Origin: an uncultured Rhodospirillaceae bacterium
Lineage (GTDB): Bacteria; Pseudomonadota; Alphaproteobacteria; UBA9219
Direction of reading: 5' to 3'
DNA: 64,000 nt
Assembly (NCBI GenBank): GCA_964652235.1
Contig: CAZZDK010000005.1
Coordinates: 29,922-93,921, forward strand
Of this stretch, positions 1,498 through 31,574 are shown one piece after another. Position 1 is the first letter of the stretch; each line of letters opens with the position of its first letter. The notes beneath the pieces were generated by a model. The model saw only the letters and a program-made list of their open reading frames with translations, was not told the origin of the DNA and ran no database searches. The position numbers were made by a program, and so were the translations under genes.

Positions 1498-1500
1498 GAT

Positions 1501-10994: not shown

Positions 10995-10996
10995 GG

Positions 10997-11344: not shown

Positions 11345-11353
11345 TGGTATGAA

Positions 11354-13542: not shown

Positions 13543-13807
13543 AGCAAACAAGCATCGCTGCATAGTCGATCAGATCACGACAAAAACGGATAAGAAATTC
13601 GAACCCGTCGCCCGCATGGCCGACATGATTGTCGAGATGACATTGGAAACGGGCACATGCGAACAGCAAGACCTTCTTGCCGAAGGTTTCTCACGCCAGG
13701 ACATCACGACCATTTGGCACTTCGCCAACGCATTGGCAGCCATTGAAATCAAGTGCCGCGCAAACGGCATCGGTTTCTCTTATGAACGGGAGACCCGTTA
13801 TGCCTAA
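13535..13807 (+). CDS. Hypothetical protein
   Basis: 90-aa ORF, GAGGA RBS, overlaps both neighbours. Confidence 0.55.
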   Translation: MIKANKHRCIVDQITTKTDKKFEPVARMADMIVEMTLETGTCEQQDLLAEGFSRQDITTIWHFANALAAIEIKCRANGIGFSYERETRYA

Positions 13808-14312: not shown

Positions 14313-14370
14313 AGGAAACGGGTTCAAGCGAGAGAATTTCAACGAGAAAACTGAGGAAAGGATATAAGTT

Positions 14371-15336: not shown

Positions 15337-15398
15337 AGCGTTGTCATTTGGCAGGAGGAATCTTACGCTTGCTTTGTTGTTACAGAAAGGCTGCAAAC

Positions 15399-16109
15399 AT
15401 GGACATTAAGTTGCTCGCGGTTGGATCAAGGCCTTGGGAACTTTGGCTGGGCTATTGGGGGCTGTCGTATCTTGTCGACGGGACGATCCTCTTCGATACC
15501 TTCGCCAACTATCGCATGCTGGAGTGGAAGTTTCGCAAGTCGCAGGTCGATCCTTCGGCAATTCAGTCCGTCGTTCTTTCGCACGATCATTGGGATCATG
15601 CAGGTGGGCTGTGGGCATTTCTTGAAAAGCATCCCGGCGTTGACGTTTATCTTCCGGCAACAGCTAAGGATGCCGTCAAACGTCGTGTCATCGCTGCCGG
15701 AGGCAATCTCATCGACGCGCCGGGGATCAAAACGCTGAAAGAGAACATCCTGCTTTCCGAAGAGATGATCGGCACGTTCAATGGGAAGTCCGTTGCAGAG
15801 CAGTTTATCATGATAAAGGCCGAAAAGGGTCTTGTCGTTTTGGTTGGCTGTTCTCACCCCGGTATCGTTGCCATCGTCAGAAAGGCAAAAGAAACGTTTG
15901 GCTCGCCCATTTACGGCGTCATCGGAGGCCTTCATCTTATGCATGCCAAGACGGACGAAATCTATGCCTGCGCCAACGAGTTAAAAAACGAAGGAATAAG
16001 GATGGTCTCGCCGACACATTGCACGGGAAGAAAGGCTGAAAGGGTTTTTCGGGGCGTTTTTGGGAAAGGTTTCGCTTCCTCTCGCGAGGGCAGCGTGCTC
16101 GCTCTTTGA
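15399..16109 (+). CDS. MBL-fold metallo-hydrolase
   Basis: SHDHWDHAGG, GCSHPG, GGLHL and PTHCTG motifs. Confidence 0.85.
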   Translation: MDIKLLAVGSRPWELWLGYWGLSYLVDGTILFDTFANYRMLEWKFRKSQVDPSAIQSVVLSHDHWDHAGGLWAFLEKHPGVDVYLPATAKDAVKRRVIAAGGNLIDAPGIKTLKENILLSEEMIGTFNGKSVAEQFIMIKAEKGLVVLVGCSHPGIVAIVRKAKETFGSPIYGVIGGLHLMHAKTDEIYACANELKNEGIRMVSPTHCTGRKAERVFRGVFGKGFASSREGSVLAL

Positions 16110-16263
16110 GACCGAACTTCCCAATTTGGGAAGGCGCGAAAAAATGGACGGAGAATGGTGAGAAGGAGCAATCCGATGGAAAGAAACGACTTTAAGCCGT
16201 TAACATCAATTCTTTCGAGAGGAAATTGATACCTAATATTCATGCATATATAGATAAATCAAT

Positions 16264-16412
16264 GCGTTAACTATGTTTTCTCGTTGATGTCAGCGTGACA
16301 AATGGTGTAGAAGCATTGAGTTTTCAGGGCATAATTTTGAGCAATTAATCGCTGCATTTTGCGAACGAAGATTTCGTTGATCAAAACGATCCGAAATCAT
16401 GCAACCAACCGG
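16264..16412 (+). repeat. Copy 1 of a ~150-bp diverged upstream duplication
   Basis: Colinear with 18131-18277 (GCGTTAAC, AAATGGTGTA, CGAAGATTTCGTTGATCAA, CGATCCGAAATCA blocks). Confidence 0.85.
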
Positions 16413-16430
16413 AATGTCGAAGGTCAGAAT

Positions 16431-18026
16431 ATGTTGCGAACCACATTTTTTGATCCCCTTACTGGAGATCCTGAGGGGCTGAATTTCGATTATTCTTTTC
16501 ACAAACTAAATGAACTGCTTGTTCAGTTAATTCACACGCAAGCCATGCAACGCATGGCATCGGTAAGCCAGCTAAGCTTTACCCACTTTTCCTTTCCAGG
16601 GGAATACAGCCGTTTTTCGCACATGCTCCAAGCCGCTCTTTTGGGCTACACGGCAATGGATAAGTTCAAGGCGAGCATCGAACTTGAAAAAAACACAAAC
16701 GAACATTTTCCAGAAGTATTCGACCAACGCATGGCCGATGCCGTTGTTATCGCCTTATTACTCCATGATATAGGTCATCCCCCATTTAGCCATACGTTTG
16801 AAAATATAATGCGTGCTCTGGGGCAAAATTTTCATCATGAAGAATGGACAAACAAACTTATCAAAGAGGATAGGCAAATCCAAAGGCTTCTTGCCGATTA
16901 CGTTGAGCGCAATCCGATGTATGGAAAGCCGTTCTTGGACGAATATGGTTGCAGCTTTCAAACAATGATCGTCGATCTCATAATGGAAAAACGTCCCGTC
17001 ATAACGAGAGTAGTCGACGGCAAAACTTTCTATTCGAGCATTTATCAAAACGCTGTTAGCGGCACCATCGACTGTGATCGACTGGCGTTTGTGCCCACGG
17101 ACAGGGCTCGCACCGAAGTCTACCCCGGCAAACAAAGCTATTCTAATAGCCAAATTCTGGATCATATGGGGGCCGGGCTTTTGTCGCTTGATGGGTATAA
17201 ACATCCTATCGTTATTCCTGTATTTGATCGTTCCGCCATTAAACAGATAGCCGCCTTTTTAAGATCGTGGCTTCTGCAATATAAGAACGTGTATTATCCT
17301 TCTGCCGGATGTTCTGCTGAAGCTATGACACGGCCTATTCTAGCCGCCTTCCTTTCTTACGCTAAAGGTGAACGCAATGAACCGCTAACGCCAACGTTGA
17401 CTCGAGGCAACCAAGAATTTGAGAAGAACCCTTTGTTTCGTTTTCTTTCGAACCCGTCCACGGAGAATTATCTGACACTGGACGATAGAGCCATAATCAG
17501 CGTTATCGAAGATATATCTCAACAAGGATATGACGTAACCCTTAAAGGGCTGGCTCGCGATATCCTTCGTCACGATCTCTGGTCAAGCATCGACCTTCAC
17601 AAACTCGCTCTGACGAACGATGATCGGAGATATCTTTTCAAAGAATTGCAACACTTGTCAGTTGGCGATGGAAATATTCTTGAAGCTGGAAAAGACTTTG
17701 TGATTGATGAGAAAAAAGAAAAATACATACCTCAAGAACAAAAGCCAACTTTGGAAAATCTTCACAAAATTGTATGGGTATTCGACGACACAGGCAAACC
17801 ACGACCACTTCATGAAGTTTCAGCGACTTTGCTTGGTGCGGTGCCAGTGAAGAAAGTTTTTATTCACGCGAAAAACGAAATTATTGTGCGGCTGACCCAA
17901 TATCTAACCGAACAATTTGAATGCGGATGTCCGCATTTATCTCAGAGAATTTTCACCAACAACCCAGAGAGATTCGAAAGAGCTAACGGAATCGGCATGA
18001 ATTCAGCAAGGCCATTTGTGACCTGA
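16431..18026 (+). CDS. HD-domain phosphohydrolase (SAMHD1/YwfO-like dNTP triphosphohydrolase family)
   Basis: SRFSHM, LLHDIGHPPFSH and DCDRL motifs. Confidence 0.75.
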   Translation: MLRTTFFDPLTGDPEGLNFDYSFHKLNELLVQLIHTQAMQRMASVSQLSFTHFSFPGEYSRFSHMLQAALLGYTAMDKFKASIELEKNTNEHFPEVFDQRMADAVVIALLLHDIGHPPFSHTFENIMRALGQNFHHEEWTNKLIKEDRQIQRLLADYVERNPMYGKPFLDEYGCSFQTMIVDLIMEKRPVITRVVDGKTFYSSIYQNAVSGTIDCDRLAFVPTDRARTEVYPGKQSYSNSQILDHMGAGLLSLDGYKHPIVIPVFDRSAIKQIAAFLRSWLLQYKNVYYPSAGCSAEAMTRPILAAFLSYAKGERNEPLTPTLTRGNQEFEKNPLFRFLSNPSTENYLTLDDRAIISVIEDISQQGYDVTLKGLARDILRHDLWSSIDLHKLALTNDDRRYLFKELQHLSVGDGNILEAGKDFVIDEKKEKYIPQEQKPTLENLHKIVWVFDDTGKPRPLHEVSATLLGAVPVKKVFIHAKNEIIVRLTQYLTEQFECGCPHLSQRIFTNNPERFERANGIGMNSARPFVT

Positions 18027-18130
18027 TCCCAACCAATGAAAATCAAGAATCAGGAGTTTTTTTAGAAACGGGGGCTGTTGAGATGTCTAAAACGGGGGGA
18101 AGCAAAAGCAAATCAGCTATGCACATCAAG

Positions 18131-18277
18131 GCGTTAACCATGTTTTTTCGTTGAGGCCAGTGTGGCAAATGGTGTAAAAAGCTCGGGAGCAGGACAAGAT
18201 TTTTTGAGTGATTAATTGCTGCGAAATATCGGCGAAGATTTCGTTGATCAACGATCCGAAATCACACAACTAAACGG
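18131..18277 (+). repeat. Copy 2 of the ~150-bp duplication, containing a perfect 14-bp palindrome TCGTTGATCAACGA
   Basis: Read directly; palindrome at 18241-18254. Confidence 0.85.
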
Positions 18278-18295
18278 TACGATAAAGGACTGAAC

Positions 18296-19408
18296 ATGCA
18301 TATATGTCTTGGTGTTTGTGGCATAGGAAAAGGACATTCGAGCAGGCAGCTGCAACTTGCAACGGAGCTTAAGGCCTGCGGCCATGAGCTTACTGTGTTG
18401 GGATATGGGGAAGCTATAGATGTATTTCGAGCCAATGGCTTTCCGATACGAGAGATTTGGCATCCCTATACGGGAGAAGGCAAAGGTTGGGCACAGATTA
18501 AGCATATGGTGAAATATAACTATAGCCGCGCAGTCCCTGGCTTGGTTCGTGATATTTCTGTTTTATTCAAATTAGCAAAGGGCAACTATCCTGACCTATT
18601 CGTTTCTGATTATGAGCCGGTGAGCGCACGCTTCGCTTATCTTAGAAACAAGCCGTTAATTTTATTCAATCAACACGGAAAGTTTCGGCATTGGCCATTT
18701 GCCCCCATAGATTCTTTTAATGCCGAAGGAGAAAAGAACAGGCTTGAGTTGTTTTTTCCTAAGTTTACGAAAAGTTTCGTTGTCTCTCTATTTCCTCTTC
18801 CGAAACATACGGATGAAAGGATAGACGTTGTCCCTCCGCCTATTCCTAGCGAGTTAAGAAGCGGAGAAACCACAACGACAAATAACATTGTTGTGTATTT
18901 TTCGCAGCACCCAGATAGAAATACTGCCCAGAGTTTAGAGGAGATGTGCGGAATTTTCTCTTCAGAACCAAAATACAATTTTATTGTGTATACTAAGCAA
19001 AATATAGATGACAAGCGTTACGGCAACGTTAGGTTTAAGAAACCGAGCAGAACGGAGTTCATACAGGATCTAAAATCCTGTGGTGGAGCCATCTCAACCG
19101 CAGGCTTTACGCTGATTTCTGAAATACTGTTTTTGGGCAAGCCGATTTTTTGTATTCCTTTGCCAAACTTCGATCAAGTGTACTGCTCAAAATATATTGC
19201 GGAGCAAGGCTTCGGATCTACAGACAGAATGCTTACAGAAAACAACCTCCGGATGTTCCTAGAAAACCTCGGTTCGTATCGAAACAATATGAAGAACGTT
19301 CGGAACTTCTTTGACCAAAAAGATCCTATCAAAACGGTAGTCGGGTATATCGAAGGAATAAAGCACGATAGCCGCCTACCTAGGTACAACTTAGCAAGGA
19401 GCCCATAA
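18296..19408 (+). CDS. GT-B glycosyltransferase (MJ1255/GT1_3-like)
   Basis: GIGKGHSSR N-terminal loop and ISTAGFTLISE C-terminal motif. Confidence 0.75.
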   Translation: MHICLGVCGIGKGHSSRQLQLATELKACGHELTVLGYGEAIDVFRANGFPIREIWHPYTGEGKGWAQIKHMVKYNYSRAVPGLVRDISVLFKLAKGNYPDLFVSDYEPVSARFAYLRNKPLILFNQHGKFRHWPFAPIDSFNAEGEKNRLELFFPKFTKSFVVSLFPLPKHTDERIDVVPPPIPSELRSGETTTTNNIVVYFSQHPDRNTAQSLEEMCGIFSSEPKYNFIVYTKQNIDDKRYGNVRFKKPSRTEFIQDLKSCGGAISTAGFTLISEILFLGKPIFCIPLPNFDQVYCSKYIAEQGFGSTDRMLTENNLRMFLENLGSYRNNMKNVRNFFDQKDPIKTVVGYIEGIKHDSRLPRYNLARSP

Positions 19409-20536
19409 ATGGAAGAAAATAAGAGCGAGGTGTTTTATACAGACGCTGAAAACAATTACGGCAATGGGAAACCATTTTTCGAACACGACTGCAGGCCATA
19501 CCAGGTGACGATCAAACCTACAATGTCTTGTCCCGCAAGGTGTGCCCATTGCACGCCAAGGCAGAAACGTTTTCCTGAAGGGGCCAAGATTCTAGGCTTG
19601 GACGGCTGGAGAGACGTCTTTAAAGAACTAAAATCTTTAGGCAGCAAGTCGATCTGTATAAGTGGGGGCGAACCCATGATGTACAAAGACATTTTTGGAC
19701 TTGCTTCGGCAGCAAAGGAATTGAGCCTTCGCGTAAGCCTTAACACTTCTGGATGGTTTTTCCATAAAGAGGAAAACCTTCGGAAGCTCGCGGAGTCGGG
19801 CGTTTCTGGCATCCACCTGTCCATAGATTCTCCAGAGGCGAAAACCCATGACAGTTTAAGAGGACTTCCCGGCCTTCATGAGCGGGCTGTAAGTTCGGTG
19901 CACAAGCTGCTATCGATAAAACCAGACATGTTAATTAATGTTCGCATGATCCTCCATAGATACACCTATCGCAGCATTCCAGAAATGTTGACCCTTGCCT
20001 ACAATTGTGGGGCGACTTCTTTGTCTATCGACCATATTCAACATGATCGGGAAGCCCAGAAATTCTTATTGTCATCAGAACAAATACAAGAGTTTAGATC
20101 CAAGGAGATGCCGAGAATTATTGAGACAATAAACAGTCTTCCATTTGAAAATGAAGCCTTAAGAGCATTAAGCGTCAAGCAAGTTGGCAGCTTTTTTAGC
20201 CCAAAACTTGCAACAAATGCTGACTACGAGAACGGAATATATTGGAAAGATCAGAACATCAGGACACACTGCACAGTTCCATCTTCATTTATGATCATCG
20301 AGGGAGATGGCACTATTTTGCCCTGTAATCCCGTCGAATATACGAGACATCCGTTGATGGGAAATCTGAACAACTCAACGATTAAAGACATGTGGGCGTC
20401 GGACGTATGGGAAGAGTTTAGAAAGAACAAGATGGATTATTGCACTCAATGCACGATGAACCAATCAAGGATGATTCCGTTTCGCAAAATGAGTGCCCCG
20501 ACCCATGTTAAGCGTGCTTCCGCAACAGCGGGTTAG
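19409..20536 (+). CDS. Radical SAM enzyme with SPASM/twitch domain
   Basis: CPARCAHC, SGGEP, and C-terminal C...GTILPC...GNL...CTQC. Confidence 0.9.
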   Translation: MEENKSEVFYTDAENNYGNGKPFFEHDCRPYQVTIKPTMSCPARCAHCTPRQKRFPEGAKILGLDGWRDVFKELKSLGSKSICISGGEPMMYKDIFGLASAAKELSLRVSLNTSGWFFHKEENLRKLAESGVSGIHLSIDSPEAKTHDSLRGLPGLHERAVSSVHKLLSIKPDMLINVRMILHRYTYRSIPEMLTLAYNCGATSLSIDHIQHDREAQKFLLSSEQIQEFRSKEMPRIIETINSLPFENEALRALSVKQVGSFFSPKLATNADYENGIYWKDQNIRTHCTVPSSFMIIEGDGTILPCNPVEYTRHPLMGNLNNSTIKDMWASDVWEEFRKNKMDYCTQCTMNQSRMIPFRKMSAPTHVKRASATAG

Positions 20537-20587
20537 ACAAATCCTTGGAGATTGAGCAAGACCAGCGTCCACTATAAGGAAGAATCT

Positions 20588-21505
20588 ATGGAAGAAAGAA
20601 TTTCTATAGTTATACCGACAAGCAACAGGCTGTCTTCGCTGTCCTTATGTCTTTCTTGCATTGATCGACAGACCAGCGCGTCTCTCGACAGAGTTGTCGT
20701 TGTTTATCATGACGTGACGCATATTCCGGATAAGCGCCTGTTCAGGACAATCGCGGATAAAATCGTTTACTTAAGGTCGGGCGATGTTTCGTCGGGGCAA
20801 AAGCGCACGATGGGAGCAAACATCGTATCAAGTCCATTCATAGGATTTCTTGACGATGATAGTTTTATCAATGACTCTTGGATAAACGAGGCTGTGGCCG
20901 GATTTTCTGTTTCGCCCAGGGCCGAGGCCCAACTTGGAAAATTGGAATGGTATAGACGCGATAACGTGACCGCATGGAAATCCATTCTTCCTGAACTCCG
21001 TCAAAAAACCTATAATTACCGAAACGATATTTTTCTTGATCCGTTGTACAAGGAAAAACTGGCGCAAGGGTTGCGTTGGGATGTTCCTCTGGGCGATATG
21101 GGATTGGCGGATCATATTTCGACAGGCAATTGCGCGTTTCGCACGCGCTGCTTTTTGGATATGGGCGGCTTCGACCCTGAGTTCAAAGTTTATTACGACA
21201 AGGAATTTGCTTTCCGGCTTCTTTCAAGCGGCAAGCCCATTTTGTATAATCCCAAAATGATTGTCAGGCACGATCACGACCCTTCATTTCTTGTGACCTT
21301 AAGAAAGAGTCTGTTCACGCCAAAATATGTTGAAATGTTCAAACGGAAACACAAGGACAGGCCTTGGGAAAAGTTTTTGAGGGAACACGCAACATATTTT
21401 GCCGAAAAGGAAAAGAACTTCCAGGCCACATTGACTGTCAGGGAACGGCTGATAAACGCGGCAATTAGGACGAGCAATAAAATTGGAAAGGCTTTATCTT
21501 TATGA
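20588..21505 (+). CDS. GT2 (GT-A) glycosyltransferase
   Basis: ISIVIPT, FLDDD and GGFDPEF motifs; alternative TTG start at 20552. Confidence 0.85.
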   Translation: MEERISIVIPTSNRLSSLSLCLSCIDRQTSASLDRVVVVYHDVTHIPDKRLFRTIADKIVYLRSGDVSSGQKRTMGANIVSSPFIGFLDDDSFINDSWINEAVAGFSVSPRAEAQLGKLEWYRRDNVTAWKSILPELRQKTYNYRNDIFLDPLYKEKLAQGLRWDVPLGDMGLADHISTGNCAFRTRCFLDMGGFDPEFKVYYDKEFAFRLLSSGKPILYNPKMIVRHDHDPSFLVTLRKSLFTPKYVEMFKRKHKDRPWEKFLREHATYFAEKEKNFQATLTVRERLINAAIRTSNKIGKALSL

Positions 21506-22272
21506 AAAGAGCAATCATTAGACTGGACGATGTTGGCGGTTCGGATTGGCAAACATACTTCGTCATTCAACTCTGCATTTTACATCGACTGCCGATATCA
21601 TGCCAGGTTGTCCCTAAATGGATAACGTCTGGAATATCGAGTTATCTCAACACCCTCATAAAAAATTATCCCGATATGATCGAGATCGTCCAGCACGGCT
21701 TCCAACATAAGAGCTATGCCGCTGTTGGCGCAAAGAACTTTGAGTTTGGCTTCCATAGGAACTATCAGGAACAGCAACTAGACATCCAAGAAGGAAAGCG
21801 GTTGCTTCAACAGCACTTTCCTGTTGGCCTTACTCCCTCTTTTACTCCGCCATGGGACGTCTTGAATCAGGATGCAATAAAAGCGCTTTTGGCAAATGAC
21901 ATCACTTCATCAACCGGGAACAAATATACTTTTGAGAAAGCGCGAGCCCCCGAAGGGTTTACAGCCATCTATTGCGATTACGACACCAGCATTAGAATTG
22001 GCCCAAACAGGGTGCAACGCGATATCAGCGATGTGATTAACCCGATAATGAACTGTGATCAAGACGCCTTGGGTATAGTAATGCACGGGAAGGAACTGGG
22101 GTCAGTAGAGGCGACCATAAACTTGATTGTCGCACTAAAATCTTTAGAAAACGCCAACTTCAGTTTTTGTCTTATCAAGGATATTCTGGCAGATGCGGCG
22201 CCATCAGCAGATCCGATTAGGTCTCGAACGCCGCCAAATCAGAAGAGGCGTCTTCTTGGTTGCGATTCATAA
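21502..22272 (+). CDS. Polysaccharide deacetylase / NodB-like (DUF2334-type)
   Basis: RLDDV, QHGFQH, FTPPW and VMH motifs. Confidence 0.75.
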   Translation: MKRAIIRLDDVGGSDWQTYFVIQLCILHRLPISCQVVPKWITSGISSYLNTLIKNYPDMIEIVQHGFQHKSYAAVGAKNFEFGFHRNYQEQQLDIQEGKRLLQQHFPVGLTPSFTPPWDVLNQDAIKALLANDITSSTGNKYTFEKARAPEGFTAIYCDYDTSIRIGPNRVQRDISDVINPIMNCDQDALGIVMHGKELGSVEATINLIVALKSLENANFSFCLIKDILADAAPSADPIRSRTPPNQKRRLLGCDS

Positions 22273-22351
22273 GCAGAAACACCCATAAGAAACCACGCTT
22301 CAAACAACAAGGGAACAACTGGGCGAAGCGGGCTCAGACGGAGTATCTAGA

Positions 22352-23248
22352 ATGCTAAGCTTGTCAAAAGATGACGATAGAATGGCTAAATCATATCACG
22401 ATGGACGACCGGGGTATCCCACTGCTTTGTTCAAAGATGCCCAACGTATTTGCGGGATTTCTAAAAAAAGCCATATCCTTGAAGTTGGGGCGGGAAGCGG
22501 CCACTCGACCGTTGGGTTAGCAGGTATTGCCGCGCGACTTACTGCTCTTGAGCCGAATGAGGCTTTTGCGAGATTGGTTCGAAAACATACAAAGGGTTTC
22601 CATAATGTTGATGTTATAAATACCGATTTCGGTCATTATACAACTAAGGCCAAATTCCGCGCCGCATTCGCGTTCATGTCGTTTCATTGGATAAAAGATG
22701 TCGATAAATTTGAAAAATTTACAAAACTTCTTCAGAAAAATGGAAGCCTAGTTATTGTTTGGCAGTATTTCATGCAACCAGCATCGCTTGTCATGAAAGA
22801 AATTAACGACGTTATGTCAATGGAACTTGGCTCATTGCACGAGACAAGTAAACATAACGAAGATCAACTTCGGCTTCTCACAGGAAGAGACGAAGAACTG
22901 CTCTCAAACAAGCATTTTTACGTAGACTGCTTTAAAAGCTATATGAGCACTTTTAGTCTTGCTGCGGAATCCTACTGCGCTCTTCTGGAAACATTTTCTG
23001 AGGTGGAGTCCCTCTCTAGCGATAAAAAAGCGGATCTGTTCAAAAGGATTCGCCCCCTAATGCTAGAGGCTAAATCCTTACCTATGCCCGTGCTGACGGA
23101 CATGATTGTTTGCAGAAAGAATCATGGTGCAAGGTTTGAGCAAGGCGATTTGATCGGAAATTGGGAGGTTTGTAAAAGAAGGGAAAGGAAAGAGGAACTC
23201 AATCGGTTATTAGGCAATGGTTTTAATTTAACCCTCACACGAAGCTAA
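22352..23248 (+). CDS. Class I SAM-dependent methyltransferase
   Basis: RPGYP, LEVGAGSG, LEPN and SFHW motifs. Confidence 0.85.
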   Translation: MLSLSKDDDRMAKSYHDGRPGYPTALFKDAQRICGISKKSHILEVGAGSGHSTVGLAGIAARLTALEPNEAFARLVRKHTKGFHNVDVINTDFGHYTTKAKFRAAFAFMSFHWIKDVDKFEKFTKLLQKNGSLVIVWQYFMQPASLVMKEINDVMSMELGSLHETSKHNEDQLRLLTGRDEELLSNKHFYVDCFKSYMSTFSLAAESYCALLETFSEVESLSSDKKADLFKRIRPLMLEAKSLPMPVLTDMIVCRKNHGARFEQGDLIGNWEVCKRRERKEELNRLLGNGFNLTLTRS

Positions 23249-24444
23249 GCTGTGGCCTTTTCGGCCTTATAAAGCCTAAAATAGATCATCCCTGCAGGCG
23301 CGGTAAGGAGCAAAATGATGAGCAGGGATTCCGCAGGGCCGAAATGATCGGCAAGGACGCCAGCAAGTATCGCCGCAAGTCCACCGATAAAAGACCCTGC
23401 CAAAGAAATTAGAGATCCCATTGTTGAGCGCTGAATGGCAGAAAAGTTTTCTTGCATAAGCGCACTATCTGCGGTCAATCCTATAGCATAAGATATTTGT
23501 GATGTTAGCATCAGCGCCGGTGAAAAGAGCGTTGCCGTCGCATAAGCGATGCCTGAGGCGATATAGGAATAAACCGTTGCGCCGAGAAGCGACTTCATCA
23601 ACCCGAACTTTTTCGTAATGTGTCCGGCACACCAGAAGGAAACGGCTCCAAGAGCGTTCTGTGCTGTGCGATAAAGTGGCGTCAGCCATGCAGGCCAAAC
23701 AGCGTCGACGAAGCCAGGCGTAAAGTTATGTGCGGCATCGCCTAGCCCCTTTTTAAGGGCTCCGGCCATGGCTAGTCCACGAAGGCGTGGATTCCGGACA
23801 ATCAATTTGAGAGACTCTTTCATATGGACAAAATTCTTGACGCCTTTTGCCCTTTGGAACGGAGGCTCGACAAAGAAAAAGGACATAATAAATCCACTGC
23901 AGACGGGGATAACTGAAAGAGCAACGAGATGTGAATAGTTTAGCCCCAATAATAACAAAGCACTTGCAAGAATGCCGGATAAGGCAAGACCAATTTGCGC
24001 CATGGAATAAATGCGTCCGATCATCTTGGGCATTTCCCGAGCGCGTCGATAATAGGAGAGCGTTTCATAGAGCCTAGCATCATTGTTTCCAGAGAACAGG
24101 GCATTAGAGAGGCCAATAAAGAAAGCGCCCGCATATAGAAGCAAGAATCCAAAAGACATGTAAAAAGAAAGGGCCAACAAAACAACTCCCAGAGTTTCTG
24201 CCCCAGACCCCAGAATGGACGTCATGCGCCGTCCGACCTTGTCGGAAAGAACCCCTGTTGGAACTTCGAGAAGGGCTTGCGAAACGCCCATCACAGCAAA
24301 AACACCCATCGCGTTTGCGAACGACCCCGTGACTTCGCGGTAAGCCAAAACGGCTACTGGATAAAATAATTGCGTGGACCCCAGAAAAGCGCCAAGAGGC
24401 ATGAGATCAAGATTGCGGCGCAGATGATTTTTCTTTCGTTTCAT
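23245..24444 (-). CDS. MFS exporter (paralog B)
   Basis: 399 aa with long blocks identical to 5829-7028; ATGA-coupled to the GT4 gene. Confidence 0.85.
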   Translation of the reverse strand: MKRKKNHLRRNLDLMPLGAFLGSTQLFYPVAVLAYREVTGSFANAMGVFAVMGVSQALLEVPTGVLSDKVGRRMTSILGSGAETLGVVLLALSFYMSFGFLLLYAGAFFIGLSNALFSGNNDARLYETLSYYRRAREMPKMIGRIYSMAQIGLALSGILASALLLLGLNYSHLVALSVIPVCSGFIMSFFFVEPPFQRAKGVKNFVHMKESLKLIVRNPRLRGLAMAGALKKGLGDAAHNFTPGFVDAVWPAWLTPLYRTAQNALGAVSFWCAGHITKKFGLMKSLLGATVYSYIASGIAYATATLFSPALMLTSQISYAIGLTADSALMQENFSAIQRSTMGSLISLAGSFIGGLAAILAGVLADHFGPAESLLIILLLTAPAGMIYFRLYKAEKATA

Positions 24445-25550
24445 GGAGTCAATCGATTGTTACTGGAGTTAAGAAGTCGATTCAAAGCTTGTTCCCAGAG
24501 GCGGCCTTTATGCTCTACACTACGTGTTGGCTGTCTTGACTCTTCGAAAGCTGCCTTTGAGAAAGACTTGTACATATCTTCATCATTCCATAACTCCCGA
24601 ACTCTTCTAGCCCAATCTTCTGCGGACGCATCTGCAGGCAGAAGGATTCCCCCTTTACCAACCGCTTCTGGAAGCCCTCCTCTGCGATATGCTATAACAG
24701 GTATTCCACTGATAATCGCCTCGGCAGCTACGCGCCCATAGGCCTCTTCCCAGAGGCTTGGAACGATCAATATCTTTGCCGCTTCGTACACTGGCCGCAT
24801 ATCAGCTTGTGCCTTCATGAAAGACACATTCGGTAGATGATCGAGTTTTTTAAATAGATCATCACGCATCTTTTTCTCAAGCGGCCCAGATTCCACAAAA
24901 AGAAAAGGTATGTCCGGGCAAAGGGTTGCGACCCTTAAGGCAATATCTACGCCCTTCCGAGGCGTGGGGCTTATAAAAAGAACCTTTTCTTGCCTAGATG
25001 AAACCCTGTACTTTTCTTCATCAATAATAGGATGAATTACAGTCGGACTCACAGGGAAGTGAGCCGCATACCTAAAAGCTGTAAATGCTGAATTGGCGAC
25101 ACAGTGAACAGAACCTAGTTTGCTTAGGTCACCGCCGTGGGCATGGAATTCAACATCTTGAAAATTCATAATGAAGGGAACATTGGCGTCTTGAATGGAA
25201 AGAGCCATAGGAACAGATCGAACTGAAAGCACGATTGCTGCATCGGGGTTTTCCGACCTAACAACGCCTCCTACAGATTCCCAGGGAATATTGGCGCGCC
25301 AAACAGGATATGCGCCCATGCTGTAATCTTTTGCCGCGCTTACCCCTATAAAAAACTTGCGAACTTTTGTTTCTGCGTGTGCTTTATATCCCAACCATCC
25401 GCTGGACATAAGACCGGCAAGAACGGCAACGCGGTGTCCCCTTGACAGCAAAGCACGGCACAACTGATCGGCTGAGCTTTGCAGGCCCCCTTTCATTTGA
25501 GGGAGGTATTTATCTCCCGTAACGATAAGAACTTTCATGATCTTCTGCAC
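24441..25550 (-). CDS. GT4 glycosyltransferase
   Basis: PSLWEEAYGRVAAEA (ExxxxxxxE) and RGGLPE motifs; likely ATG start at 25538. Confidence 0.85.
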   Translation of the reverse strand: MQKIMKVLIVTGDKYLPQMKGGLQSSADQLCRALLSRGHRVAVLAGLMSSGWLGYKAHAETKVRKFFIGVSAAKDYSMGAYPVWRANIPWESVGGVVRSENPDAAIVLSVRSVPMALSIQDANVPFIMNFQDVEFHAHGGDLSKLGSVHCVANSAFTAFRYAAHFPVSPTVIHPIIDEEKYRVSSRQEKVLFISPTPRKGVDIALRVATLCPDIPFLFVESGPLEKKMRDDLFKKLDHLPNVSFMKAQADMRPVYEAAKILIVPSLWEEAYGRVAAEAIISGIPVIAYRRGGLPEAVGKGGILLPADASAEDWARRVRELWNDEDMYKSFSKAAFEESRQPTRSVEHKGRLWEQALNRLLNSSNNRLTP

Positions 25551-25693
25551 TCCCGAGATAAGTCCCTACGTCTTCCTCAAAATCAAGCTGTTTCTCATTG
25601 ACGCGCCGCTTAAGAAAGATACAGCGGAATTTACACATAGTTCAACAAAAACCTTTCCCAAAAGGGTTCCACCCAAGGGTTGATTCTGGTCAG

Positions 25694-26443
25694 TTATCCT
25701 TGCTTAAGATTAAGGGTCGAATCCGCAACCCACCTCTTCCGTGACGATTGATGCCATCCCGTCCGCACGGTATAAGGCCGGCAAATGCGGCAGGTATTGA
25801 AAGGCTCATCACGCTGCATAAATGCGCCGATCTTTTCTTCGGTCGCTCCTTCTAAACACAAGCCATCCACACCCCAGGGCAAGCCCATTAGCTTCTGCGG
25901 ATAGAATGTCGATTGAGAACAGAGATAGAAATAGGCATCGTGAACTGTGAAGCATTTTTTGCGCCACGGACAAGCATAGAAACTGCTTCCGTCTGGAACA
26001 ACATCAAGCTGTTTAAAAAACTCAGAGGTGGGGCGCATATCCAACTCAAACCCATATTTCTCGGCCTTCTTTTGGGCTAGCTCCAAATTTTGGGGCGGGG
26101 TGTTAGGATAGACGGACAACCTCAAGGTCTCCAATGATCCCCAGAAATCGTCTTTCATACGATGAAGCAGAAGGCCGTTTGTAAAAAGTCTGTGCCCCTT
26201 ATCAATACGAATATCCGTTATCATTCGCATGATGCTTGCGATTTCTTTATGCAGCAACGGTTCTCCGCCGACTATGTGCACGGCTCCAACCGACATAAAA
26301 GGCTTTAGCGCGACAAGGTCACGCTTAATCCTGTCTAGGGATCTGATTTCGGGAGCGTACAGGGGGGATGCGTGAGAACAGGATGCGCAGCGATTGTTAC
26401 AATGAAGCACAACATTCACGTCCAGATTATCGACATAAATCAT
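25694..26443 (-). CDS. Compact radical SAM enzyme with C-terminal Cys cluster
   Basis: CNNRCASC, GGEPLLH, TNGLLL, then CPWRKKC...C...CRIC. Confidence 0.85.
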   Translation of the reverse strand: MIYVDNLDVNVVLHCNNRCASCSHASPLYAPEIRSLDRIKRDLVALKPFMSVGAVHIVGGEPLLHKEIASIMRMITDIRIDKGHRLFTNGLLLHRMKDDFWGSLETLRLSVYPNTPPQNLELAQKKAEKYGFELDMRPTSEFFKQLDVVPDGSSFYACPWRKKCFTVHDAYFYLCSQSTFYPQKLMGLPWGVDGLCLEGATEEKIGAFMQRDEPFNTCRICRPYTVRTGWHQSSRKRWVADSTLNLKQG

Positions 26444-26592: not shown

Positions 26593-26789
26593 TATATGGT
26601 GGCCCACTGAAAATTTTCTGATGGTTCAGGAGGCTGTTCTGCGAAACTGTTTTTTTTGTAAAAAGATTTTGTTTTTCCTTGCTTGCATAAGCCGCTCACA
26701 AATGTATAAAAGCGAAAATTGCTTGTAGGTTGCTGCGGCGCCTCATTTACATAATAGCGGCTAGCGCCCACAAAAAAACAGGAGAACAT

Positions 26790-29636
26790 ATGTCCGAAGT
26801 TGATTACAAAAATACGTTAAACCTTCCTGTAACGGATTTTCCTATGCGCGCGGATTCCTCTCAGTCTGAACCGCGCCGCGTTGGCCTTTGGCTTGAGGAG
26901 AACGCTTACGACCGCCTCAGAAACGCTCACGAAGGCGACGAAACCTTTATCGTTCATTGCGGCCCTCCTTATGCGAACGGCAAACTTCATGGAGGACATT
27001 TAGCTCCTTGCATGCTTAAGGACATTGTCGTTCGAAGCAAGAGTATGGCTGGCTTCGATACACCTTTTGTTCCCGGATGGGACTGCCATGGGCTCCCCAT
27101 CGAATGGAAAGTGGAGAAGGAGCTTCAAGCGCAAGGCACCAAGAAGTCAGAGGTTACGCGTGCCGAGTTCAGGCAACTATGCAGGGAATATGCGTCGAGA
27201 TGGATCGAAGAACAGAGAAACGATTGGCAGCGCATGGGCTGTCTTGCCGATTGGTCAAACCCGTATTTGACGATGGACTTTTCCACGGAAGCCAACATCA
27301 TTCGCCAGCTTGGCCGGCTTGCGCAAACAGGCCTTCTATACAAAGACTTTAAACCCGTTATGTGGTCCCCCGTCGAGCAAACAGCGCTTGCGGAGGCAGA
27401 GATAGAATATGAAAACGCTAAAGCCAAAGCCATCTTCGTCGGCTTCGACCTAGTTTCCGCCGACAAGGAAGCTCTAGTCGCGTGGACGACTACGCCCTGG
27501 ACTCTCCCCTCAAATAAAGCTTTGGCTGTTGCCCAAGACATCACTTACGTTGCGGTCCAAGCACAAAATACGGATGAAACATCTCAGATCGAAAAGGACA
27601 AACTTTACTGGGTGGCTGAATCTCGCGTTGCCGCCTTTGCGAAAGCTGCCGGGATTAGCGAATACGAGATCGTTAAAAAACAACAAGGGAAATCGTTTGT
27701 CGGTCAGCTGTGTAAGACGCCCCTATATGACGAAACAGTTCCGGTTGTTTTGGGAGAGCACGTGACTGCAGAAGACGGAACAGGTATCGTCCATATTGCT
27801 CCCGCGCATGGTTTAGAAGACTTTTCTGTTGGAAAACAAAACGGCCTTGTGCTTGAGGGCTACATTGATGAGAAAGGCTGTTTTACTTCCTCGGTTCCCG
27901 CGCTAGCTCATACGCAGAAATCATTGGCTGGCCTTAAAATGGTTGAGGCCGAACCACTCATTTTGGAGGATCTGCGCGCCACAAAAACGCTTCTGCGAGA
28001 AGAATCCATTAAGCATTCGGTTCCCGTCTCATGGCGATCAAAGGCTCCATTGATTTGCCGCACGACGAGCCAATGGTTCGTGTCTATGGACACTCCCTAT
28101 TCCGACGATGAAAAGACGTTGAGGCAGGGAGCGCTCGACGAGATTTCCAAGGTTTCTTGGTCGCCCAAAGACGGCGGCAACAGAATTAGGGGCATGGTTC
28201 AAGACCGCCCGGATTGGTGCATCTCCCGCCAAAGGCTGTGGGGCGTTCCTATCTCAATTTTTCAGGTGCGATCCACTGGCGAGTATGTTCTGGATCCAGA
28301 AGTTTTCGAGTCTATCGCACAAGCGGTAGAAAAACATGGCATTGACGCTTGGGACGAACTTCCAACGGAAAAGTTGCTGCCTGAGGGATGGCTCAAAAAG
28401 CGTGGCATCGCCGCCGACGATCTGGTGCGCGAGAAAGACATTTTAGACGTCTGGTTCGACTCCGGTTCTTCTTTCTACCACGTTTTAAAGCAGAGGCCCG
28501 AGCTGTCTTTTCCGGCCGATCTCTATTTGGAAGGGTATGACCAACATAGAGGCTGGTTTCAATCAAGCTTATTGCTGGCAACAGCTACAGAAAACGCAGC
28601 TCCATACAAAAGCGTTTTAACGCACGGCTTTGTCGTCGACAAACACGGAAAGAAAGTTTCTAAATCCAAAGGAAATGGCGCTGATGCCGTTGAGTCGATG
28701 GACAAATACGGCGCCGATGTGTTGCGACTTTGGGTCGCATCGGCAAACTACAAAAGCGATCTGCGCTTTGACGACAAAACCATGAAAGACGTGACAGAGT
28801 CTTATAGAAAGATACGGAACACTCTGAGGTACCTGATGGGAAACACCTCAGATTTTGATCCGAAGAAGGACGCGGTCGCTTATGCCGATCTTCCGGAAAT
28901 GGAAAAGTGGATTCTTGCCAAGTACGCCGGTGTAAGCCAGACAATGCAGGATTGTTACTCTTCTTATGATTTTCAAAAAGCGTTTAAGTCCGCCTTGGAT
29001 TTCTGCAAAAACGAGCTATCCAGCTTCTACTTGGACGTAAGAAAAGACACACTTTATTGCGAGGAGCCATCATCTTCGACGCGCCGTTCCTGCCAAACGG
29101 TTCTGAATCACTTGTTGGATGGACTGACGACACACCTGACTCCGCTTATGCCGTTTACCTGCGACGAAGCATGGCGGTTGCAGCATGGGGAAAACGCTCC
29201 TGTCTATTTGGAAAGATTCAAGCCTTCGGCTCCGGAATGGGGTGATCAAGATATCCTTGCGAAATGGGAAAGGATTGGTTCTCTCAGGGAGCAGGTCAAC
29301 ACGACGTTTGAGGCAAAGATTAAAGAGGCAACTAATCTCAAAAACAGGACGACGGTTGCTGCCGAAATAGAGGCGCCATCACAGCTTATCAAAGATATGG
29401 AAGGACTTGATGCTGCTAACGTTCTCCAGTTTGCTTCCGTTAGGCTAAAACAATCGGATGATATCCAAGTGGCGTTTTCTTTGTTTGATGGTAGCAAGTG
29501 CCCACGCTGTTGGAAGAGCTTTGAGGCCTTAGCCGATGATCTTTGTGGACGTTGCTCAGATGTCGTTGCAAAGCTTGCAGTTAGGCCAACAAAAGGGCAA
29601 GAGCAATCTCCGCCTACGAAGCAAGCCAAGCCTTAA
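26790..29636 (+). CDS. ileS: Isoleucine--tRNA ligase, type 1, with divergent catalytic signatures
   Basis: YKNTLNLP, PPYANG, GWDCHGLPIE, WTTTPWTLPSN, GTGIVHIAPAHG, DWCISRQR, DVWFDSG, C-terminal CxxC..CxxC Zn finger; AGGAG RBS before 26790. Confidence 0.93.
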   Translation: MSEVDYKNTLNLPVTDFPMRADSSQSEPRRVGLWLEENAYDRLRNAHEGDETFIVHCGPPYANGKLHGGHLAPCMLKDIVVRSKSMAGFDTPFVPGWDCHGLPIEWKVEKELQAQGTKKSEVTRAEFRQLCREYASRWIEEQRNDWQRMGCLADWSNPYLTMDFSTEANIIRQLGRLAQTGLLYKDFKPVMWSPVEQTALAEAEIEYENAKAKAIFVGFDLVSADKEALVAWTTTPWTLPSNKALAVAQDITYVAVQAQNTDETSQIEKDKLYWVAESRVAAFAKAAGISEYEIVKKQQGKSFVGQLCKTPLYDETVPVVLGEHVTAEDGTGIVHIAPAHGLEDFSVGKQNGLVLEGYIDEKGCFTSSVPALAHTQKSLAGLKMVEAEPLILEDLRATKTLLREESIKHSVPVSWRSKAPLICRTTSQWFVSMDTPYSDDEKTLRQGALDEISKVSWSPKDGGNRIRGMVQDRPDWCISRQRLWGVPISIFQVRSTGEYVLDPEVFESIAQAVEKHGIDAWDELPTEKLLPEGWLKKRGIAADDLVREKDILDVWFDSGSSFYHVLKQRPELSFPADLYLEGYDQHRGWFQSSLLLATATENAAPYKSVLTHGFVVDKHGKKVSKSKGNGADAVESMDKYGADVLRLWVASANYKSDLRFDDKTMKDVTESYRKIRNTLRYLMGNTSDFDPKKDAVAYADLPEMEKWILAKYAGVSQTMQDCYSSYDFQKAFKSALDFCKNELSSFYLDVRKDTLYCEEPSSSTRRSCQTVLNHLLDGLTTHLTPLMPFTCDEAWRLQHGENAPVYLERFKPSAPEWGDQDILAKWERIGSLREQVNTTFEAKIKEATNLKNRTTVAAEIEAPSQLIKDMEGLDAANVLQFASVRLKQSDDIQVAFSLFDGSKCPRCWKSFEALADDLCGRCSDVVAKLAVRPTKGQEQSPPTKQAKP

Positions 29637-29896
29637 TAAGGATCGGGCTTGAAAACGCTTTTGTCGCAGGCCGCTTTAATTTGTGCGCGTAGCACAGCGT
29701 AGTCGTGCATAGCATCGGTAGAAGCCGCTCCAGAAGGAGCGGCTTCTATTTCTTTTGCAAGCCTTTTCTGAAACTCCCTGCTATACTCCTTGATCGGCGG
29801 GCAGACGCAGGCAGGGTTAGAATTTGCCGTTCCGCAGGCGGTCAACAAGCTCAGCGCGAGTGCGAGGAGCGTCCATCGTTGCACGAAGTTGGGCAT
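29633..29896 (-). CDS. Outer-membrane lipoprotein spanin (Rz1-like)
   Basis: Lipobox LLTAC; overlaps the Rz-like gene. Confidence 0.7.
   Translation of the reverse strand: MPNFVQRWTLLALALSLLTACGTANSNPACVCPPIKEYSREFQKRLAKEIEAAPSGAASTDAMHDYAVLRAQIKAACDKSVFKPDPY
29719..29757 (+). terminator. Intrinsic terminator for ileS lying inside the antisense spanin gene
   Basis: Perfect 13-bp stem TAGAAGCCGCTCC-agaa-GGAGCGGCTTCTA followed by TTTCTTTT. Confidence 0.7.
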
Positions 29897-30056
29897 CTTT
29901 GATCTCCACGATTTTTTTGAGTTGGTCATAGCGTTCGGCAGTTCGGCCTGATTGCTTTGCGCCGAGCAAAACGGCGGCCACGGACGCGGCAAGCGCGCCC
30001 CAGCCGATGATTTTGATGAGGTTGCTGGATAACCAGCCTGAAAGGATCGTCCACAT
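29817..30056 (-). CDS. Inner-membrane spanin (Rz-like)
   Basis: N-terminal TM plus coiled coil, immediately after the endolysin. Confidence 0.6.
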   Translation of the reverse strand: MWTILSGWLSSNLIKIIGWGALAASVAAVLLGAKQSGRTAERYDQLKKIVEIKDAQLRATMDAPRTRAELVDRLRNGKF

Positions 30057-30740: not shown

Positions 30741-30770
30741 AAGAAAAAGCCGCCCGAAAGCAGCTTTCGG
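30741..30770 (-). terminator. Probable terminator hairpin upstream of the endolysin gene
   Basis: GC-rich stem followed by TTTTTCTT on the minus strand. Confidence 0.45.
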
Positions 30771-30806
30771 TGTACAAAACGTGATGTTTCTCGTAAGTTC
30801 GAGGTT

Positions 30807-31268
30807 ATGGAAATCAGAGACGCCAAACCGGAAGACGCCGCCGCGATTTGCGATGTCCTGCGTCAGTCCGTCACAAACTTATGCATCGGGGATCACAAGA
30901 ACGACCCAGCCATCCTTGGCGCTTGGCTCGGCAACAAGACGCCGGAGACGCTGAAAAGTTGGATCGAGGATACTTCAAGCCAAATGCTGGTGGCGACCGA
31001 AGGCGATGAGGTTCTCGCCGTGGGAGGCATCATGGATACGGGCGAGATCACGTTGAACTATGTCCTGCCTTCGGCACGCATGCGCGGCATAAGCAAACGG
31101 ATGGTTCAGGCACTTGAAGCACGAGCGAAAGAGTCTGGCGCAATAGCCTGCACGCTTAACAGCACAGGCACAGCACGGCGTTTTTATCTGGCGATGGGCT
31201 ATGCCGAACAAGAACCCAAGACGGGCATGTTCGGAGCTATCGTTTACCCGATGTCGAAACCCCTTTAA
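30807..31268 (+). CDS. GNAT acetyltransferase (moron)
   Basis: YVLPSARMRGISK and ARRFYLAMGY; antisense to the late operon. Confidence 0.85.
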   Translation: MEIRDAKPEDAAAICDVLRQSVTNLCIGDHKNDPAILGAWLGNKTPETLKSWIEDTSSQMLVATEGDEVLAVGGIMDTGEITLNYVLPSARMRGISKRMVQALEARAKESGAIACTLNSTGTARRFYLAMGYAEQEPKTGMFGAIVYPMSKPL

Positions 31269-31271
31269 TAT

Positions 31272-31574
31272 CTATGACCCTTTGCTCGTCCACCAGCGAA
31301 GGACATTGTCGAGCACAAATCCGGCGATGGCCCCAAGCGTCAGGATCACGGCAAAGCCGCCTTTCCAGCGGTTCGCCAAGCGGTCGAGGGTGTCGAGCCG
31401 AGAGTCGATTCCATCCACCTTGGTTTTGAGTTCGGATACGGCAGCGATAAGGCTGGCAACTTGCGCTTCTAGCCGCCCGATGCTGCGGAAGTATTCGATC
31501 TGTTCATTTGGGCTCATGGTAAAACTCTCCTGATCCTGTCCGTTAGGCACAGGCTGCGTTTGTGTTTGAAGCAT
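31272..31574 (-). CDS. Coiled-coil protein with C-terminal TM, holin-like candidate
   Basis: Position near lysis genes and single TM; function inferred. Confidence 0.5.
   Translation of the reverse strand: MLQTQTQPVPNGQDQESFTMSPNEQIEYFRSIGRLEAQVASLIAAVSELKTKVDGIDSRLDTLDRLANRWKGGFAVILTLGAIAGFVLDNVLRWWTSKGS

Follow-up and report, generated by a model that had tools for sequence, protein, structure and literature searches.

A Phage-Linked Type-1 Isoleucyl-tRNA Synthetase of a Rare Clade in an Uncultured Alphaproteobacterium: A Candidate Inhibitor-Insensitive Spare Enzyme

Introduction

To our knowledge, every characterised mobile or producer-encoded isoleucyl-tRNA synthetase (IleRS) that is insensitive to inhibitors is a type-2 enzyme (IleRS2), namely MupA, MupB, MupM, TmlM, and SbzA. 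Among the aminoacyl-tRNA synthetases (aaRSs) encoded by biosynthetic gene clusters (BGCs), AbmK and AgnB2 are further examples of immunity proteins. The BGC-encoded aaRSs of the tiarin clusters have been proposed to be immunity genes; each matches the residue that stands before a conserved Gln, and every one of them had a housekeeping duplicate (bioRxiv 10.64898/2025.12.02.691738). AcmD and SbzA are also precedents for the existence of extra aaRS copies (PMC12945691, PMC6331615). Here, an ileS gene (positions 26790-29636, plus strand) is analysed in a stretch of 64,000 nucleotides, called the window from here on, which was taken from contig CAZZDK010000005.1 (positions 29,922 to 93,921; GenBank assembly GCA_964652235.1) of an uncultured Rhodospirillaceae bacterium.

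The explanation that we favour, and to which we give about an even chance, is that ileS encodes a working type-1 enzyme (IleRS1), acquired horizontally as phage-linked cargo, whose most likely role is that of an inhibitor-insensitive spare enzyme (target replacement). According to this proposal, the gene would not be the ancestral housekeeping copy of the host but a horizontal acquisition, situated where a mosaic island of low GC content meets the lysis end of a temperate phage. The helix that comes after HIGH and likewise the KMSKS loop are remodelled across a whole subclade of IleRS1, with a small or polar residue at the X of HxGH, Ala changed to Leu, Asn70 to Pro, Lys to Asn, Ser, or Cys, and Met to Val. 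The gene would be expressed from its own promoter-like site and ended by its own terminator hairpin, and the spare IleRS would keep charging tRNA-Ile while an inhibitor mimicking isoleucyl-adenylate (Ile-AMP) blocks the host enzyme. Such an inhibitor could be the product of an adjoining glycosyltransferase/radical S-adenosylmethionine (radical-SAM) cluster, in which case the gene would confer self-immunity, or it could come from competitors, in which case lysogenic conversion would be involved. A second ileS in the host, a reduced affinity for inhibitors, and a link to the product of the cluster are the parts of the proposal that we infer.

The locus resembles the systems mentioned above in several respects. 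As with IleRS2, MupA, MupB, MupM, and TmlM, a divergent lineage appears to be housekeeping in some bacteria and a mobile extra copy in others; the window enzyme differs from them in being of type 1, with a C-terminus that includes a zinc finger, and in being carried by a prophage-linked island and no plasmid. As in the BGCs with immunity aaRSs (the tiarin clusters, or AcmD in ascamycin), an extra-looking aaRS lies beside a seemingly specialised cluster with an exporter. SbzA, from the SB-203207/8 pathway, is likewise an additional IleRS of full architecture that lies beside biosynthetic genes and shows slightly modified signature motifs, but it is IleRS2-like (37.6% identical to the IleRS of T. 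thermophilus) and carries AMSKA, whereas the window enzyme is an IleRS1 with KVSKS. Finally, the aaRS genes of huge phages also include IleRS linked to phage DNA, although in the present case the gene is linked to a temperate siphovirus of the lambda-like kind.

Were the proposal true, target-replacement resistance would have been reached a second time and independently, in a type-1 lineage whose HIGH helix is remodelled. A further novelty would be that a single clade comprises what is apparently the housekeeping enzyme of a few uncultured bacteria and, at the same time, cargo of phages and of antibiotic or immunity loci. If, on the other hand, the enzyme were as sensitive as canonical IleRS1, the case would be reduced to that of a divergent but otherwise ordinary synthetase that was transferred horizontally.

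Identity and Integrity of the Synthetase

The ileS gene codes for 948 amino acids from an ATG start codon with AGGAG just 5′ of it. Its product scores 854.1 bits against the ileS model TIGR00392 (cut-off 621.4), alignment of its residues 5-927 gives 699 bits with 8C9E, the type-1 enzyme of P. megaterium, and 676 bits with 1FFY, that of S. aureus, and the type-2 structures 8C9D/8C8V reach about 349 bits. Because of the TIGR00392 score and of the end-to-end alignment with solved type-1 enzymes, the protein is, as judged from its sequence, a complete type-1 IleRS with activation, CP1 editing, and anticodon-binding domains and a C-terminal Cys4 zinc finger. Its identity to canonical type-1 IleRS is about 40% over the full length, and it has in common with them (E. 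coli, 1FFY, 8C9E) the order of the domains, the length, HxGH, KxSKS, the CP1 elements TTTPWT and GTGxVH...D, and the zinc finger. Membership of the MupA/MupB group was ruled out, the protein scoring 321 bits (MupB) and 289 bits (MupA) against a cut-off of 1900 in the NCBIfam exception models.

An earlier note on this DNA, made from the sequence alone, had located altered signature motifs in an otherwise intact enzyme, and the positions given there are right. The HIGH region, HCGPPYANGKLHGGHLAPCMLKD (26955-27023, plus strand, as are all the motifs that follow), contains HGGH at 26988-26999, with H67, G69, and H70 being canonical. EGYDQ, which includes Tyr583, lies at 28530-28544, and KVSKS (K622-V623-S624-K625-S626), a variant of KMSKS in which both lysines and both serines are retained, at 28653-28667. 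Thus, the HxGH and KMSKS signatures differ from the canonical ones at the non-catalytic X and Met positions only. The editing motifs TTTPWT (residues 233-238; 27486-27503) and GTGIVH (residues 330-335; 27777-27794) are present and, together with D344, invariant across the clade described below, and the zinc-finger cysteines are found in CPRCW and CGRC (29499-29555).

Metagenomes from a hot spring, sludge, landfill, and wastewater contain the gene with identities of 93-99%. With respect to the variant found in metagenome X3, 47 codons differ, 36 of them synonymously and 11 non-synonymously, and all 11 non-synonymous ones fall in the CP1 periphery or in the C-terminal domain, sparing the catalytic core. 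The gene is under purifying selection, and this, together with the conservation of the protein, suggests that the enzyme charges tRNA-Ile. Transcription is weakly suggested by two cDNA-labelled wastewater runs, whose contigs cover ileS and scarcely the adjoining cluster.

It could be argued that ileS is an inactive or decaying paralogue, taking into account that eight changes private to it affect near-invariant columns (23, 212, 310, 359, 411, 664, 686, and 845; Y411V and H310T, for instance) and that its closest relative, P0009, is truncated. However, the frame is open over its full length and every catalytic, editing, and zinc-binding residue is in place. The 36:11 ratio with its untouched core rules out relaxed selection and makes an inactive paralogue hardly credible, in agreement with what the earlier note held about the absence of decay.

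Motif Variants and Phylogenetic Position

The earlier note had seen in the HIGH flank, EGYDQ, and KVSKS a pocket that had been specially rebuilt in this gene. In a homologue search over 5.8 billion proteins, no relative closer than 55-61% identity was found, and the eleven nearest ones (P0002-P0012) are 48-61% identical to the window IleRS. These eleven have in common the pattern HCGPPYANG-x-LH-[G/A/N/S]-GH-[L/M]-[I/V/A]-P-[N/S/C]-x-LKD, and K-[V/L/I/M]-SKS-x-GNG is also present in them. An alignment and a tree against IleRS1 place the window protein (P0001) inside an IleRS1 subclade, since the 12 sequences (P0001-P0012) form one group in a neighbour-joining tree, in which the window protein is sister to P0009 (61% identical) and next to P0007, all three with HGGH.

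Column counts were made over 120 IleRS sequences, comparing 74 canonical IleRS1 with the 12 clade members. At position 68, the X of HxGH, 67 of the 74 canonical enzymes have I or M, and the clade has G, A, N, or S. Position 73 is Asn in 64/74 canonical sequences and Pro in all the clade members; position 623 is Met in 69/74, as opposed to V in eight clade members, L in one, I in one, and M in two; and position 583, Ser or Thr in 74/74, is Ser in eight members of the clade, Thr in one, Val in two, and Tyr in the window protein alone. Therefore, as these counts show, the HIGH flank, EGYDQ, and KVSKS are real departures from canonical IleRS1. In comparison with the canonical enzymes, the clade is distinguished by D57C, G/A/N/S at the X of HxGH, A71L, N73P, the change of K74 to N, S, or C, the change of M623 to V (8/12), and about a dozen further positions, to which the window protein adds Tyr583. 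This tyrosine is the sole flagged residue that is private to the window gene within the clade, and EGYDQ was also found in one unrelated IleRS1 with a normal KMSKS (P0137), in a profile search over 1.84 billion cluster representatives.

The idea of a pocket rebuilt in this particular gene thus finds no support, given that all the variants except Tyr583 are common to the 12-member clade. Nor do the changes cluster in the pocket, as had been thought: column analysis showed that 18 clade-defining substitutions are scattered over residues 57 to 882, and none of the eight window-private changes lies in the adenylate site. Because the substitutions are spread over the whole protein, the clade is best described, at the level of sequence, as a deeply diverged IleRS1 lineage rather than as a local rebuild. 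The HIGH-flank and KVSKS variants are shared derived traits of this subclade, including those members that have housekeeping neighbourhoods.

The clade is rare, with about two representatives among 1.84 billion clusters at 50% identity. A degenerate DNA pattern of its HIGH region matches 1 of 185,579 GTDB genomes, the motif being absent there from the host relatives BF4_69 and AnMBR.bin438. When IMG/VR, JGI metagenomes, GenBank phages, and PLSDB plasmids were scanned for clade members, no relative above 47% identity came up.

Inhibitor Contacts of the Adenylate Site

In P. megaterium IleRS1 (PmIleRS1), mupirocin makes contacts that are absent from IleRS2, involving the backbone of Pro56, the side chain of Asn70, stacking on Phe586, and the amide of K597 (Brkic et al. 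2023, PMC10485003). By alignment with the solved enzymes, Pro56, Phe586, and K597 are kept in the window IleRS as P59, F614, and K625, whereas Asn70 corresponds to Pro73, a Pro in 12/12 clade members. In the IleRS2 structure 8C8U (HVGH-ALGR, EGIDQ), Gly occupies the position of Asn70 and Ile that of Tyr583; the clade is thus similar to IleRS2 in being without the Asn70 contact. The claim of the earlier note that the changes touch the inhibitor site stands for this one residue, a mupirocin contact of type-1 enzymes only.

It has been reported that the GXHH swap (G/A-x-H-H, affecting the first and third positions of HxGH) confers hyper-resistance in IleRS2, and that IleRS1 is intolerant of it and of signature-motif changes (PMC10485003). 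In the window enzyme the motif reads HGGH, with His first and Gly third, and the catalytic first, third, and fourth positions are retained. A GXHH-type alteration is therefore ruled out, and with it the reading of HGGH as an altered HIGH motif of the hyper-resistant kind. A lower affinity of the whole clade for Ile-AMP mimics is plausible from the residues involved. Nevertheless, because some clade members look housekeeping, the clade motifs need not signal resistance.

Genomic Context of ileS

The window begins with host backbone (12-2888, minus strand; identified by synteny), which comprises a MinD/Fer4 ATPase, a NifX-like protein, a DUF134 protein, a membrane protein, and a thioredoxin-like protein. 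This segment is syntenic with metagenome-assembled genomes (MAGs) of uncultured anaerobic Alphaproteobacteria, being 71-95% identical at the amino-acid level to L052 and found also in L051 and L053, and the synteny ends near 2900. Between the backbone and a prophage there is an accessory stretch of 27 kb, of which ileS is the last gene. The prophage (30056-64000, minus strand, assigned with PHROGs and Pfam) is that of a lambda-like siphovirus, runs from the endolysin through tail, head, TerL, ParB-methylase, and replication genes, and continues beyond the window; its TerL shares about 60% identity with those of Rhodobacter phages. An open reading frame (ORF) for a spanin-like lipoprotein (29633-29992, minus strand), standing last in the lysis module of the phage, is convergent with ileS and overlaps it by 4 nt at the stop codon.

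The accessory stretch is a mosaic, because metagenome contigs vary in presence, identity, and depth along it. Thus, X4 contains 10.2-22.9 kb, 25.6-29.84 kb, and the phage, without the backbone and without 3-10.2 kb; in X7, the identity is about 100% over 3.3-13.9 kb and 92-97% over 14.3-29 kb; and in X3 the depth is about 10x in the ileS segment and 100-1000x in the phage. The contigs with ileS in X3 and X4 extend into the conserved phage junction. The GC content at third codon positions (GC3) is 0.52 in ileS, 0.41-0.49 in the neighbouring cluster, and 0.60-0.71 in backbone and phage genes. Because of the loss of synteny near 2900, its GC3, its presence in X4 without the backbone, the junction contigs, and a homologue on a phage-like element (L001), ileS is considered to be accessory or mobile at this place. 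That the island belongs to the phage is inferred, because neither attachment (att) sites, nor prophage ends, nor an integrase were found in the window.

These same data bear on the possibility that ileS is the only, ordinary housekeeping IleRS of the host, with prophage and island as coincidental neighbours; the lineage would then either have this subclade as its normal enzyme or have exchanged its original one for it. Four clade members look chromosomal or housekeeping: P0003 and P0004 (the latter on a 1.46-Mb contig) adjoin rsmB, dnaX, ybaB, radA, and der; P0005 adjoins a LeuRS-like gene, dnaA, rpsT, and hisS; and P0008 also has a chromosomal neighbourhood. The strong purifying selection, the probable transcription, and the intactness of all domains point in the same direction. 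On the other side, the related MAGs lose synteny before the island, the clade motif occurs in a single GTDB genome that is neither BF4_69 nor AnMBR.bin438, the GC3 is unlike that of the backbone genes, the gene accompanies the phage in X4 where the backbone is absent, and a related phage-like element bears a homologue, all of which makes this possibility unlikely. The four neighbourhoods nearly settle one matter, since the earlier note had conceded that its case would fall if the variants were normal in the housekeeping IleRS of the lineage: this appears to be so for some clade members, with the exception of Tyr583, which is private within the clade.

A promoter-like sequence, TTGCAT-N16-TATAAA (26683-26710, plus strand), read from the sequence and taken as a candidate, lies in the AT-rich spacer of 347 bp that is 5′ of ileS; a promoter consensus scan passed over it because of the A that forms the last base of its -10 hexamer. 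At the other end, 80 nt past the stop codon, the terminator scan found a hairpin with a 15-bp stem followed by a T run (29717-29750, plus strand), just on the island side of a jump in depth at 29760-29840, which marks the island/phage junction and coincides with contig ends in X3 and X4.

It has been proposed that aaRS genes in huge phages keep charging going during infection, and ileS might similarly be an auxiliary translation gene of the phage that sustains Ile charging during infection or induction, for instance against a shutdown of translation by the host or a defence system directed at charging. It is directly beside the lysis end of the prophage, a related phage-like element carries an IleRS too, and IleRS genes occur in huge-phage contigs (PMC7162821). 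However, those enzymes are only 33-40% identical and come from contigs of 150-560 kb and genomes of 150-630 kb; the convergence of ileS with the late operon, together with its own promoter-like site and terminator, suggests cargo independent of the late genes; and its non-phage relatives occur in antibiotic and immunity contexts. Consequently, such a role seems quite unlikely.

As a separate observation, some 190 nt at 29760-29950, corresponding to the N-terminus of the spanin-like protein, reach a depth of 200-1000x in X3, with flanks of about 10x. The junction of island and phage falls on this stretch, which is apparently conserved among many phages of those communities.

The Neighbouring Glycosyltransferase/Radical-SAM Cluster

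At 16359-26443, 347 bp away from ileS and with a GC content of 0.455, there is a cluster that encodes, according to Pfam and NCBIfam, an HD hydrolase, a GT1_3 glycosyltransferase, a radical-SAM/SPASM protein, a GT2 protein, a DUF2334 protein, a methyltransferase, an MFS exporter, a GT4 protein, and a short radical-SAM protein. The radical-SAM/SPASM gene translationally abuts the GT1_3 gene, and its product has 13 homologues at E<1e-20 among the 5.8 billion proteins, none of them named. The core formed by these two genes recurs at 14 loci, two found by protein look-ups and twelve by a genome scan. All but one come from MAGs of gut Clostridia or Mollicutes with a GC content of 24-31%, the remaining one (L147) being from an Anaerolineae MAG with 54%, and some of the loci are flanked by serine recombinases. 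A methionyl-tRNA synthetase (MetRS) of 527 amino acids, 47-100% identical to the reference MetRS of L134, lies 1-5 kb away at 10 of the 14, in either orientation. Because the same core adjoins an aaRS in two unrelated settings, this recurrence argues for a functional link with class-I synthetases.

At the loci with GC contents of 24-27% (L134, L136, L137, L139-L142, and L144-L146), the core is accompanied by AsnB-like, radical-SAM, UDP-glucose dehydrogenase, epimerase, dNK-like, and YdjC genes. The radical-SAM/SPASM protein in these Clostridia is sometimes fused to a methyltransferase, and the MetRS nearby reads PYANSSLHLGH and KFSKS.

The cluster also gives rise to the possibility that ileS is its biosynthetic partner, either as a supplier of Ile-tRNA, as VlmL and AcmD are, or as an Ile-tRNA-dependent isoleucyl transferase that is similar to SbzA and would help to make a product containing isoleucyl, a role that the earlier note had mentioned alongside inhibitor resistance. 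The occurrence of the core next to a class-I aaRS of different specificity elsewhere is compatible with it, as is the abundance of nucleotide-handling enzymes in the island (phosphoribosyltransferase (PRTase)-like, HAD, NUDIX, and HD proteins). Furthermore, SbzA is an extra IleRS with full architecture that acts both as resistance protein and as transferase (PMC12945691, PMC6331615). In an AlphaFold 3 model, Tyr565 of SbzA stacks on the substrate; for a possible correspondence to Tyr583, the spacing taken from 8C8U gives position 566, one residue off. However, the SbzA loop is a degenerate AMSKA associated with weak charging. In the window enzyme, by contrast, KVSKS retains both lysines and both serines, and selection has preserved the editing and anticodon domains. 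Taking into account also that most clade relatives are not beside such a cluster and that no tRNA-dependent transferase partner was identified, a biosynthetic role is doubtful, and a spare, inhibitor-insensitive enzyme is the reading that we retain.

A wider hypothesis would bring these data together. Clusters with GT1_3 and radical-SAM/SPASM genes might produce sugar- or nucleoside-based mimics of aminoacyl-adenylates, each accompanied by an insensitive class-I synthetase (IleRS here, MetRS in Clostridia); the IleRS version would have been spread by temperate phages, and the rare clade would be a naturally insensitive type-1 lineage, repeatedly recruited next to tiarin, HIT, and MccF-family loci. 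We regard this as speculative and probably too ambitious. Should such novel inhibitors exist, the clade would parallel IleRS2 and MupA on the type-1 side, and the finding would gain weight if the pairing of cluster and synthetase marked a new inhibitor family. This cluster type, with its 13 homologues of the core enzyme, and the cassette described in the next section would offer a handle for resistance-guided mining. The two radical-SAM proteins score 52 and 26 bits in weak matches to the model of the blasticidin enzyme BlsE, whose cut-off is 400, and a nucleoside-antibiotic product is a lead only.

Neighbourhoods of Related Synthetases

Other members of the clade are found in accessory surroundings. 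P0002, an IleRS with 55% identity to that of the window, is located on L001, 3′ of a trio encoding a DUF6014 protein, a HIT hydrolase, and a nucleotidyltransferase-like protein. L001 is related to the window prophage, with TerL 57%, ParB 58%, and TerS 38% identical and two further proteins that match. The same trio (44-62% identical) stands in front of the IleRS of P0011. The four-gene cassette that results (DUF6014, HIT, a nucleotidyltransferase-like protein of about 280 amino acids, and IleRS) was observed at L001 7408-12829 and L133 145-5617; from one locus to the other, the cassette proteins share 43-62% identity and the IleRS only about 50%, and one cassette is in a phage-like element, the other adjoining argG and argH.

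P0007 has as neighbours a TauD-family dioxygenase, an S66 peptidase, and a LeuRS-like gene. S66 is the family to which MccF, the immunity protein for microcin C, belongs. P0009 comes from a locus (L047 1-12445) with YcaO, two nitroreductase-family proteins, a 64-residue peptide containing ...ALLQGGGS..., a GNAT protein, and a leucyl-tRNA synthetase (LeuRS). Its IleRS is cut short near residue 725, just 5′ of an MFS gene fragment related to the MFS genes of the window. The architecture of this locus is, as far as can be read from its genes, of the tiarin type, and by the published tiarin rule the 'LQ' of the precursor would predict a product that targets LeuRS. A LeuRS-like gene adjoins a clade IleRS at three loci (L017 7403-12802, L132, and L047), one of them housekeeping-like and two accessory.

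Several findings weigh against a spare, inhibitor-insensitive enzyme linked to the cluster. No second ileS of the host was demonstrated, the GTDB species representatives containing no genome of the same species, and P0003, P0004, P0005, and P0008 have, as said, housekeeping-like surroundings. The S66 and HIT proteins found beside other relatives also have ordinary housekeeping roles. As to the cluster, it carries no recognisable signature of inhibitor biosynthesis, and a surface glycan could be its product; its low-GC relatives contain the UDP-glucose dehydrogenase, the epimerase, and the AsnB-like gene, as polysaccharide loci do; the core loci L138, L143, and L147 have no aaRS within reach; and the adjacency of MetRS may stem in part from the shared ancestry of related MAGs. 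Homologues of the YcaO and of the TfxB/TfxC-type nitroreductases of L047 were not found in the window, nor was a precursor, so that a tiarin cluster is ruled out there; the cluster beside ileS is of an undescribed type. The expression signal consists of contigs and no reads, with DNA carry-over being possible, and the lack of att sites and of an integrase within the window has to be added to this list.

Of the suggestion made in the earlier note, that the enzyme is inhibitor-resistant or repurposed, the part that survives is the one that concerns its role: the genomic context fits an accessory copy linked to resistance or biosynthesis. The structural argument on which it was based, a privately rebuilt pocket in which the changes cluster, does not survive.

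Other Features of the Window

The remaining accessory segments (3488-16109), which are variably present between samples, encode a phosphoesterase, an orotate-PRTase-like protein, a HAD protein, an MFS transporter, two GNATs, a methyltransferase, three XRE-type regulators, a NUDIX protein, and an MBL-fold protein. No att-like direct repeats were found between the candidate island borders, no tRNA genes were found in the window, and there was no Rfam match anywhere in it, including a regulatory leader RNA 5′ of ileS. An anti-phage defence island was considered and rejected, since nothing beyond generic radical-SAM, dGTPase-like, and weak candidate-system (PDC) matches came from PADLOC; island genes that are recognisably phage-like were discarded as well, PHROGs having given weak regulator matches only.

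GNATs are immunity enzymes of microcin-C-type clusters. They play the same role in tiarin clusters (bioRxiv 10.64898/2025.12.02.691738). Within the lysis region of the prophage, one GNAT acetyltransferase gene has the opposite orientation (30807-31268, plus strand), and one X3 contig skips it, with a joint from 30748 to 31282.

Operons of the DUF134, NifX-like, and MinD/4Fe-4S ATPase type are usually seen in strict anaerobes. The one present in the host backbone (12-1497) has its best matches in Alphaproteobacteria MAGs from anaerobic bioreactors and biofilms.

Enzymes that handle nucleotides are abundant in the island (4403-5832 and 13677-18026), where a HAD phosphatase, a NUDIX hydrolase, an MBL-fold protein, and a dGTPase-like HD protein are encoded, and the orotate-PRTase-like protein scores 134 bits, just below the cut-off of 150. 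The two MFS paralogues of 399 amino acids (5829-7028 and 23245-24444, both on the minus strand) are 76% identical, belong to different segments of the island, and have GC3 values of 0.66 and 0.49, respectively; the second one and the GT4 gene that adjoins it are missing in the X4 variant. The three XRE-type helix-turn-helix paralogues (9652-13542) are 33-43% identical over their aligned parts. The one at 9652-10374 (minus strand), distantly similar (25%) to a regulator of L001, is transcribed away from a series of small ORFs on the plus strand, and the layout of this region resembles that of a phage immunity switch.

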